This document shows positions 45,675 to 46,454 of a stretch of DNA of 64,000 bases, piece by piece. The position numbers were made by a program, and so were the translations under genes. The notes under the pieces were generated by a model that saw only the letters and a list, made by a program, of their open reading frames with translations, was not told where the DNA came from and did no database searches. The DNA is taken from NCBI RefSeq assembly GCF_003334355.1, contig NZ_QOWP01000003.1. One strand, given 5' to 3'. Each line of letters starts with the position of its first letter. Position 1 is the first letter of the stretch. This DNA comes from Escherichia coli (lineage in GTDB: Bacteria; Pseudomonadota; Gammaproteobacteria; Enterobacterales; Enterobacteriaceae).

Positions 45675-46454
45675 ATGCAAACCATCACCATCGCCCCACC
45701 CAAGCGCAGCTGGTTCTCGCTTCTGAGCTGGGCCGTTGTTCTCGCCGTGCTGGTCGTCTCGTGGCAGGGCGCGGAAATGGCCCCGCTCACGCTGATTAAA
45801 GACGGCGGCAACATGGCAACCTTCGCTGCCGACTTCTTCCCGCCCGATTTCAGCCAGTGGCAGGATTACCTCACCGAAATGGCCGTCACGCTGCAAATCG
45901 CCGTCTGGGGCACCGCGCTGGCGGTGGTTCTCTCCATCCCCTTTGGCCTGATGAGCGCCGAAAACCTGGTGCCGTGGTGGGTTTACCAGCCCGTTCGCCG
46001 CCTGATGGACGCCTGCCGCGCCATTAACGAAATGGTCTTCGCCATGCTGTTCGTGGTCGCCGTCGGTCTCGGACCGTTCGCTGGCGTGCTGGCGCTATTT
46101 ATCCACACCACCGGCGTGCTCTCCAAGCTGCTTTCCGAAGCGGTAGAAGCAATTGAACCTGGCCCGGTGGAAGGCATTCGCGCCACCGGTGCCAACAAGC
46201 TCGAAGAGATCCTCTACGGCGTGCTGCCGCAGGTGATGCCGCTGCTGATCTCCTACTCCCTCTATCGCTTCGAATCCAACGTCCGCTCGGCGACCGTCGT
46301 CGGCATGGTCGGCGCGGGCGGGATCGGCGTCACCCTGTGGGAAGCGATTCGCGGTTTCCAGTTCCAACAAACCTGCGCCCTGATGGTGCTTATCATCGTC
46401 ACGGTCAGCCTGCTGGATTTCCTCTCTCAACGGTTGCGTAAGCACTTTATCTGA
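45675..46454 (+). CDS. phnE: Phosphonate ABC transporter permease PhnE (intact, in-frame allele)
   Basis: Track ORF 45612..46454 begins inside the REP; recognised PhnE start [23 protein letters not shown] at ATG 45675 (codon 22); 259 aa, uninterrupted; contains two copies of the 8-bp repeat at 46080-46095. Confidence 0.92.

Follow-up and report, generated by a model that had tools for sequence, protein, structure and literature searches.

The two-copy octamer repeat in phnE of an Escherichia coli strain, its relation to the cryptic K-12 allele, and copy-number variation among complete E. coli genomes

The phnE gene of Escherichia coli K-12 is interrupted by an extra unit of an 8 bp repeat, and the presence of the shorter form of this repeat in another E. 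coli genome raises the question of whether the tract is one state of a phase switch or ordinary coding sequence that happens to be repetitive. The first-pass annotation of a 64,000 nucleotide stretch of E. coli DNA (the window) described the shorter form as the ON state of such a switch, and we have followed this suggestion by comparing the tract with K-12, with E. coli B, with other species and with the complete E. coli genomes.

In the window, phnE occupies positions 45675-46454 on the plus strand and, as the first-pass annotation stated, forms a single uninterrupted frame of 259 codons, from an ATG start to a TGA end. It is assigned as phnE from this ORF, from its Pfam match, from the annotation of the gene in a near-identical record and from its identity with the gene of REL606. 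The product of phnE is an integral-membrane permease of the PhnCDE phosphonate/phosphate ABC importer, and the sole Pfam domain found in the protein is that of ABC-importer permeases (BPD_transp_1, PF00528; residues 88-258, E = 5.6e-26). Its partners phnC, encoding the ATPase (43740-44528), and phnD, encoding the binding protein (44553-45569), are intact on the same strand, and the 11 genes from phnF to phnP (46475-54553, also plus strand), which encode a regulator and the C-P lyase pathway, have no internal stops, so that the intact phnE completes the pathway. The gene is the third of a complete phnCDEFGHIJKLMNOP operon in which internal stops are absent from all 14 genes, and the gene order in the window is that annotated in strain PSS-12.

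The tract itself, at 46080-46095, reads GCTGGCGTGCTGGCGC and consists of two adjoining octamers that are mismatched solely at the last base; the coordinates and description given in the first-pass annotation are exact. The first unit, GCTGGCGT (46080-46087, plus strand), is the one that is duplicated in K-12, and the second, GCTGGCGC (46088-46095, plus strand), is the terminal imperfect unit in all alleles examined. The exact period-8 core, GCTGGCG-T-GCTGGCG, extends from 46080 to 46094 on this strand, with a run of 7 starting at 46080. The octamers span phnE codons 136-141 (Ala-Gly-Val-Leu-Ala-Leu), inside a near-invariant peptide motif, and they constitute an intragenic tandem repeat that is present in two copies and whose 8 bp unit is not divisible by three.

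The behaviour of this repeat in K-12 is well documented. The phosphonate deficiency of K-12 is due to an 8 bp duplication in phnE, Phn+ derivatives are without the duplication, and E. coli B is proficient (PMC3463581). The extra unit, 5'-GCTGGCGT at ORF positions 407-414, is lost in revertants, which emerge via slippage under phosphonate or low-phosphate selection, and PhnCDE imports orthophosphate too (PMC6469041). Slippage between the direct repeats causes frequent deletion of a unit (PMC4759930), the K-12 repeat has been specified as having 'three, not two' copies (PMC7566553), and later papers cite Makino (1991) and Iqbal (2004) for the cryptic phnE with its three 8 bp direct repeats. The reversible gain and loss by slippage that the first-pass annotation described for K-12 is reported in these four papers, with citation of Makino (1991) and Iqbal (2004), and the finding in the window is a correct recognition of already known biology. 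The Phn+ and Phn- phenotypes, and the reversion by slippage in K-12, have their basis in this literature.

Alignment to MG1655 and to E. coli B, as the first-pass annotation had proposed, defines the relationship of the window allele to both. The homologous site in MG1655 reads GCTGGCGT GCTGGCGT GCTGGCGC within a phnE annotated as a 'frameshifted' pseudogene, and both sequence and annotation bear out the statement of a third, frameshifting octamer in K-12. The gene, the position (ORF nucleotide 406 onwards) and the octamer are the same, whereas the window has two copies and K-12 has three. The K-12 product keeps the first 140 residues of PhnE and then runs out of frame for 49 residues before a stop; the frameshift removes the C-terminal half of the permease domain. 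Taking one unit out of the K-12 sequence gives a 259-codon frame whose protein is identical to the PhnE of the window, and the window repeat corresponds to the state of K-12 Phn+ revertants. Apart from the 8 bp indel, however, the window and K-12 genes differ by 17 synonymous and no non-synonymous changes; the window therefore carries a different haplotype and not a K-12 revertant, and, in agreement with the first-pass annotation, its allele is not of the MG1655 type. The same annotation pointed to an Arg at residue 2 of BasS (His in K-12), and this too is right: PmrB/BasS (36021-37121) differs from its K-12 counterpart at this single position in 366 amino acids, which is residue 2 in the MHFLRR numbering and residue 5 from the RefSeq-annotated start.

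No such differences separate the window from E. coli B, whose phn(EcoB) is the classical phosphonate-proficient operon, as the phnE of REL606 is identical to that of the window at 780 of 780 bases; from this nucleotide identity we infer that the window phnE is proficient in transport. The 22 kb comprising the phn operon and its flanks are 99.6% identical to strain AS19, which we take to be a derivative of E. coli B, and the best match over the whole region is PSS-12, a human faecal isolate that differs by 5 SNPs in 22 kb. One of these five SNPs, at window position 43468, accounts for a difference in yjdN (43164-43607), which is intact in the window and is annotated with an internal stop in PSS-12.

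Considered alone, the two-copy repeat is statistically unremarkable, and its significance derives only from comparison. The 64 kb window has 21 loci at which adjacent octamers share 7 or all 8 positions, compared with 15.3 +/- 4.0 in first-order Markov shuffles, and it has four exact period-8 runs that are 7 bases or longer, compared with 3.0 +/- 1.5 in Markov shuffles. Tandem Repeats Finder did not call the octamer tract in the window even at a minimum score of 30. The program did report a second near-tandem repeat within phnE, at 46225-46249 (period 12, 2.1 copies, 84% match), which reads TGCCGCAGGTGA TGCCGCTGCTGA and is in frame. By eye, GCTGGCGT matches Chi, GCTGGTGG, at 6 of 8 positions, and nothing suggests that this is relevant.

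The comparison across species, for which one genome was taken per species and 80 PhnE orthologues were kept, with no Escherichia or Shigella among them, shows that the peptide is conserved and the repeat is not. The motif GLGPFAGV[L/M]ALF is near-invariant from the Enterobacteriaceae to Pseudomonas and the beta-proteobacteria, but in most of the 80 species the two octamers agree at only 3-6 of the 8 positions. Agreement at 7 of 8 is confined to three species, the repeat being degenerate in the other 77; even in Pseudocitrobacter faecalis, the closest relative among them (98% protein identity), they match at 6 of 8. A tract maintained by selection would be expected to be conserved and over-represented, and this one occurs at chance frequency and is not conserved across the 80 species. 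The E. coli repeat is thus best regarded as having arisen by chance from synonymous codon choice within a constrained motif, and not as a conserved device, and given its lack of conservation in other genera nothing suggests that it has been maintained as a switch.

Within E. coli, we surveyed the tract in the 5,426 complete genomes in RefSeq. With a 119 bp query from K-12, the 1,000 records matching at 99% identity or more carry three copies and nearly all others match at 93% or less because of the 8 bp gap. The three-copy total of about 1,000 is inflated by laboratory K-12 lines, and a three-copy query on the window haplotype gave the complementary picture. Copy number was ranked with a one-sided query composed of the left flank and 12 units. 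Most records have two copies, which is the majority state in E. coli; the three-copy class includes many records labelled as natural isolates, 12 records have four copies, and one record each has seven (OkiPb01713, cattle, Japan) and ten (2013C-4974, human, USA). One-copy contraction alleles were searched for in the 5,426 genomes and there were none, nor were there alleles of 5, 6, 8, 9 or at least 11 copies. The repeat count takes values of 2, 3, 4, 7 and 10 in these genomes. All of the 3-, 4-, 7- and 10-copy alleles are out of frame and are annotated as frameshifted.

The source labels of the three-copy records include human, chicken, duck, frog, dog, cattle and wastewater, and when the ranking was sampled at even intervals non-laboratory labels were attached to 8 of the 11 three-copy records drawn. 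According to one paper, phnE is functional in the vast majority of strains, and we found no paper in the searchable literature that reports this copy-number distribution. The observations that the OFF allele is widespread beyond laboratory K-12 and that longer arrays exist may therefore be new, as a modest extension of what was known. The survey also turned up other forms of the gene. A half-length match in the cattle isolate OkiPb01679 (L008), considered as a possible long array, proved to be an 83 bp deletion in phnE between CCGTTCGC direct repeats, equivalent to approximately 45991-46073 of the window; the right-hand repeat adjoins the octamer tract, and this is a second, unrelated route to inactivation at the same place. 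In isolate W409, phnE is reduced to its first 170 bp. Plasmid-labelled records account for five of the phnE matches, and phnE has no match in 31 of the 5,426 genomes.

When the haplotypes that carry the expanded alleles are compared, the tract is seen to have undergone three or more separate expansions, and both states can be found on one haplotype. Strain 35 (cattle, Kazakhstan) has three copies on the window haplotype, with no SNPs in 780 bp once the tract is collapsed. A third haplotype, separated by 20 SNPs from that of the window and by 23 from that of K-12, is common to the 7- and 10-copy alleles, and its nearest relatives, at 1-3 SNPs, all have two copies. (OkiPb01713 cannot be treated as one clone with its two-copy namesakes from the same survey; their flanking proteins differ and they are hence different strains.) On the K-12-type haplotype only five records have two copies. 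One of these is NZ_CP032679, an MG1655 derivative from Sao Paulo that is consistent with the revertant of PMC6469041, and the natural isolates are the pairs ETEC1732/1734 and Z217-2/-4; ETEC1732, with two copies, differs by 1 SNP in 3,780 bp from ECONIH6 and SW070917, which have three. Outside the K-12-type haplotype only three of approximately 4,400 genomes have expanded tracts, from which it follows that switching of the two-copy allele to OFF is rare or counter-selected in nature. When collapsed to two copies, every one of the expanded alleles reads as an uninterrupted ORF, and none has more than a single conservative substitution (V27I or V28I).

We consider it highly probable that the window holds a wild-type, functional two-copy phnE towards the head of an intact 14-gene operon, that the OFF state arises from it by slippage, and that longer tracts are less stable. 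In the two-copy allele a misaligned strand has 7 bases of homology to pair with. In the mechanism that we propose, the nascent strand, with GCTGGCG at its 3' end, would re-pair one unit back during replication, and continued copying, through T and then GCTGGCGC, would yield GCTGGCGT GCTGGCGT GCTGGCGC, which is exactly the K-12 allele. The resulting +8 shift would replace the sequence beyond Ala140 with the 49 out-of-frame residues and stop, and phosphonate uptake would be lost. With three copies the homology grows from 7 to 15 bases, so that both loss (three to two) and further gain (to four, seven or ten) should be much easier, and the instability of the three-copy tract would account for the frequent, reversible switching reported in K-12. 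Given how misalignment mutagenesis generally behaves, we infer that the change from two copies to three is much rarer than the reverse.

Hairpin-assisted slippage was also considered and is unsupported: DNA folding of the two- and three-copy tracts on both strands gave nothing beyond shuffled controls (z-scores of -0.33, -1.61, +2.47 and +0.34), and simple misalignment would thus suffice. High-frequency reversible switching has been reported for K-12, and the identical or near-identical haplotypes that carry two and three copies lend it indirect support. Looking back, one may accurately call the window allele the ON state of a switch, yet the term makes the two-copy allele seem more switch-like than it is, in that two copies are the wild-type state with just 7 bases of homology.

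The comparison with established systems is instructive here. As in the tetranucleotide tracts of Haemophilus influenzae lic1A and mod and the tracts of Neisseria opa and pilC, the phnE repeat is intragenic and its unit is not a multiple of three, a change in copy number toggles both frame and phenotype, and longer tracts are less stable. The arrays at those loci, however, are long (often 10-40 units) and conserved from strain to strain, and they switch frequently, whereas the default state of phnE is a minimal, imperfect repeat of two units that occurs at chance frequency and is not conserved in other genera. Furthermore, phnE encodes a metabolic transporter, whereas the classical contingency loci are surface or restriction-modification genes.

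In an alternative explanation there is no switch at all in this strain, the repeat being a product of chance, the K-12 allele a single clonally inherited duplication, and the two-copy state effectively stable. Its chance-level frequency and its degeneracy in 77 of 80 other species agree with this, as does the fact that the roughly 1,000 records with three copies fall on one closely related haplotype, as would fit a single origin; other haplotypes show few expansions (3 of approximately 4,400) and contraction to one copy was not found. We nonetheless regard this explanation as unlikely, given that at least three independent expansions have occurred at exactly this tract, one of them on the window haplotype, that the 4-, 7- and 10-copy alleles point to ongoing instability, and that the high-frequency reversion of K-12 is published. 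It is very improbable that the copy-number differences are artefacts of sequencing or assembly; although the 7- and 10-copy alleles are each known from one assembly, and some assemblies (UC4224, for example) have many frameshifted genes, three copies are present in about 1,000 independent assemblies and four in 12, the third copy in K-12 has been verified experimentally in the literature, and the two longest alleles were obtained by two laboratories on two continents and yet share a haplotype.

A further explanation is that the tract is a selected contingency locus, with ON and OFF favoured in different niches and the states of lineages held by selection rather than by drift or history. On the K-12-type haplotype OFF prevails (about 1,000 three-copy and 12 four-copy records against five with two copies), despite the expected ease of reversion from three copies to two. 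The collapsed OFF alleles are intact, with no more than one conservative change, and so do not resemble decaying dead pseudogenes; none of the expanded alleles (3, 4, 7 or 10 copies) is in frame, the in-frame numbers of 5 and 8 being absent, and phnE is inactivated in another isolate by the unrelated 83 bp deletion. We think this possible but doubtful: conservation of the repeat does not extend across genera, laboratory K-12 derivatives and clinical clones are over-represented in the sample, the independent events are few, and the one candidate selective agent considered is not supported. The idea that OFF protects from the import of fosfomycin, put forward in a 2019 preprint, was dropped, the published version attributing the effect to expression of phnG-P and not to import by PhnCDE.

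In a similar vein, it is only a tentative suggestion, and one that we would rate as rather unlikely, that the phnE tract is a genuine natural contingency locus of E. coli beyond a laboratory curiosity of K-12. Such a suggestion may draw on the frameshifted three-copy allele being present in about a fifth of the RefSeq complete genomes, many with non-laboratory labels, and it may also draw on the independent expansions on at least three haplotypes, the arrays of up to 10 copies and the undecayed OFF alleles. If true, it would imply recurrent selection against uptake by PhnCDE in some niches, balanced by selection in favour of such uptake when phosphorus is limiting.

The preferred reading, a wild-type two-copy allele from which OFF alleles arise by slippage, has several practical consequences. 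The source strain is no derivative of K-12 and is predicted to be phosphonate-proficient, like E. coli B, and the phnE allele should be useful both for strain typing and for the prediction of phosphorus-source phenotypes. The survey corrects the common assumption that a cryptic phnE is a peculiarity of K-12, the gene being frameshifted in about 1,000 of approximately 5,400 genomes, and the tract is worth checking when phosphonate or phosphite use is predicted, or phn mutants are interpreted, in clinical and veterinary isolates that are phylogroup-A-like. The locus also provides a tractable example of how an accidental repeat of two units can become a hypermutable tract after a single duplication.

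Other differences lie outside the operon. The yjdM-yjdN intergenic region (42905-43164) is, by annotation coordinates, approximately 398 bp longer in K-12 than in the window, PSS-12 and OkiPb01710. Downstream of phnP (54700-62030) the window has rpiB-alsRBACEK, as do K-12-type and B strains, and in two Okinawa cattle isolates (L011/L012) this segment is replaced by a short gene of the RpiB/LacA family followed directly by yjcS.
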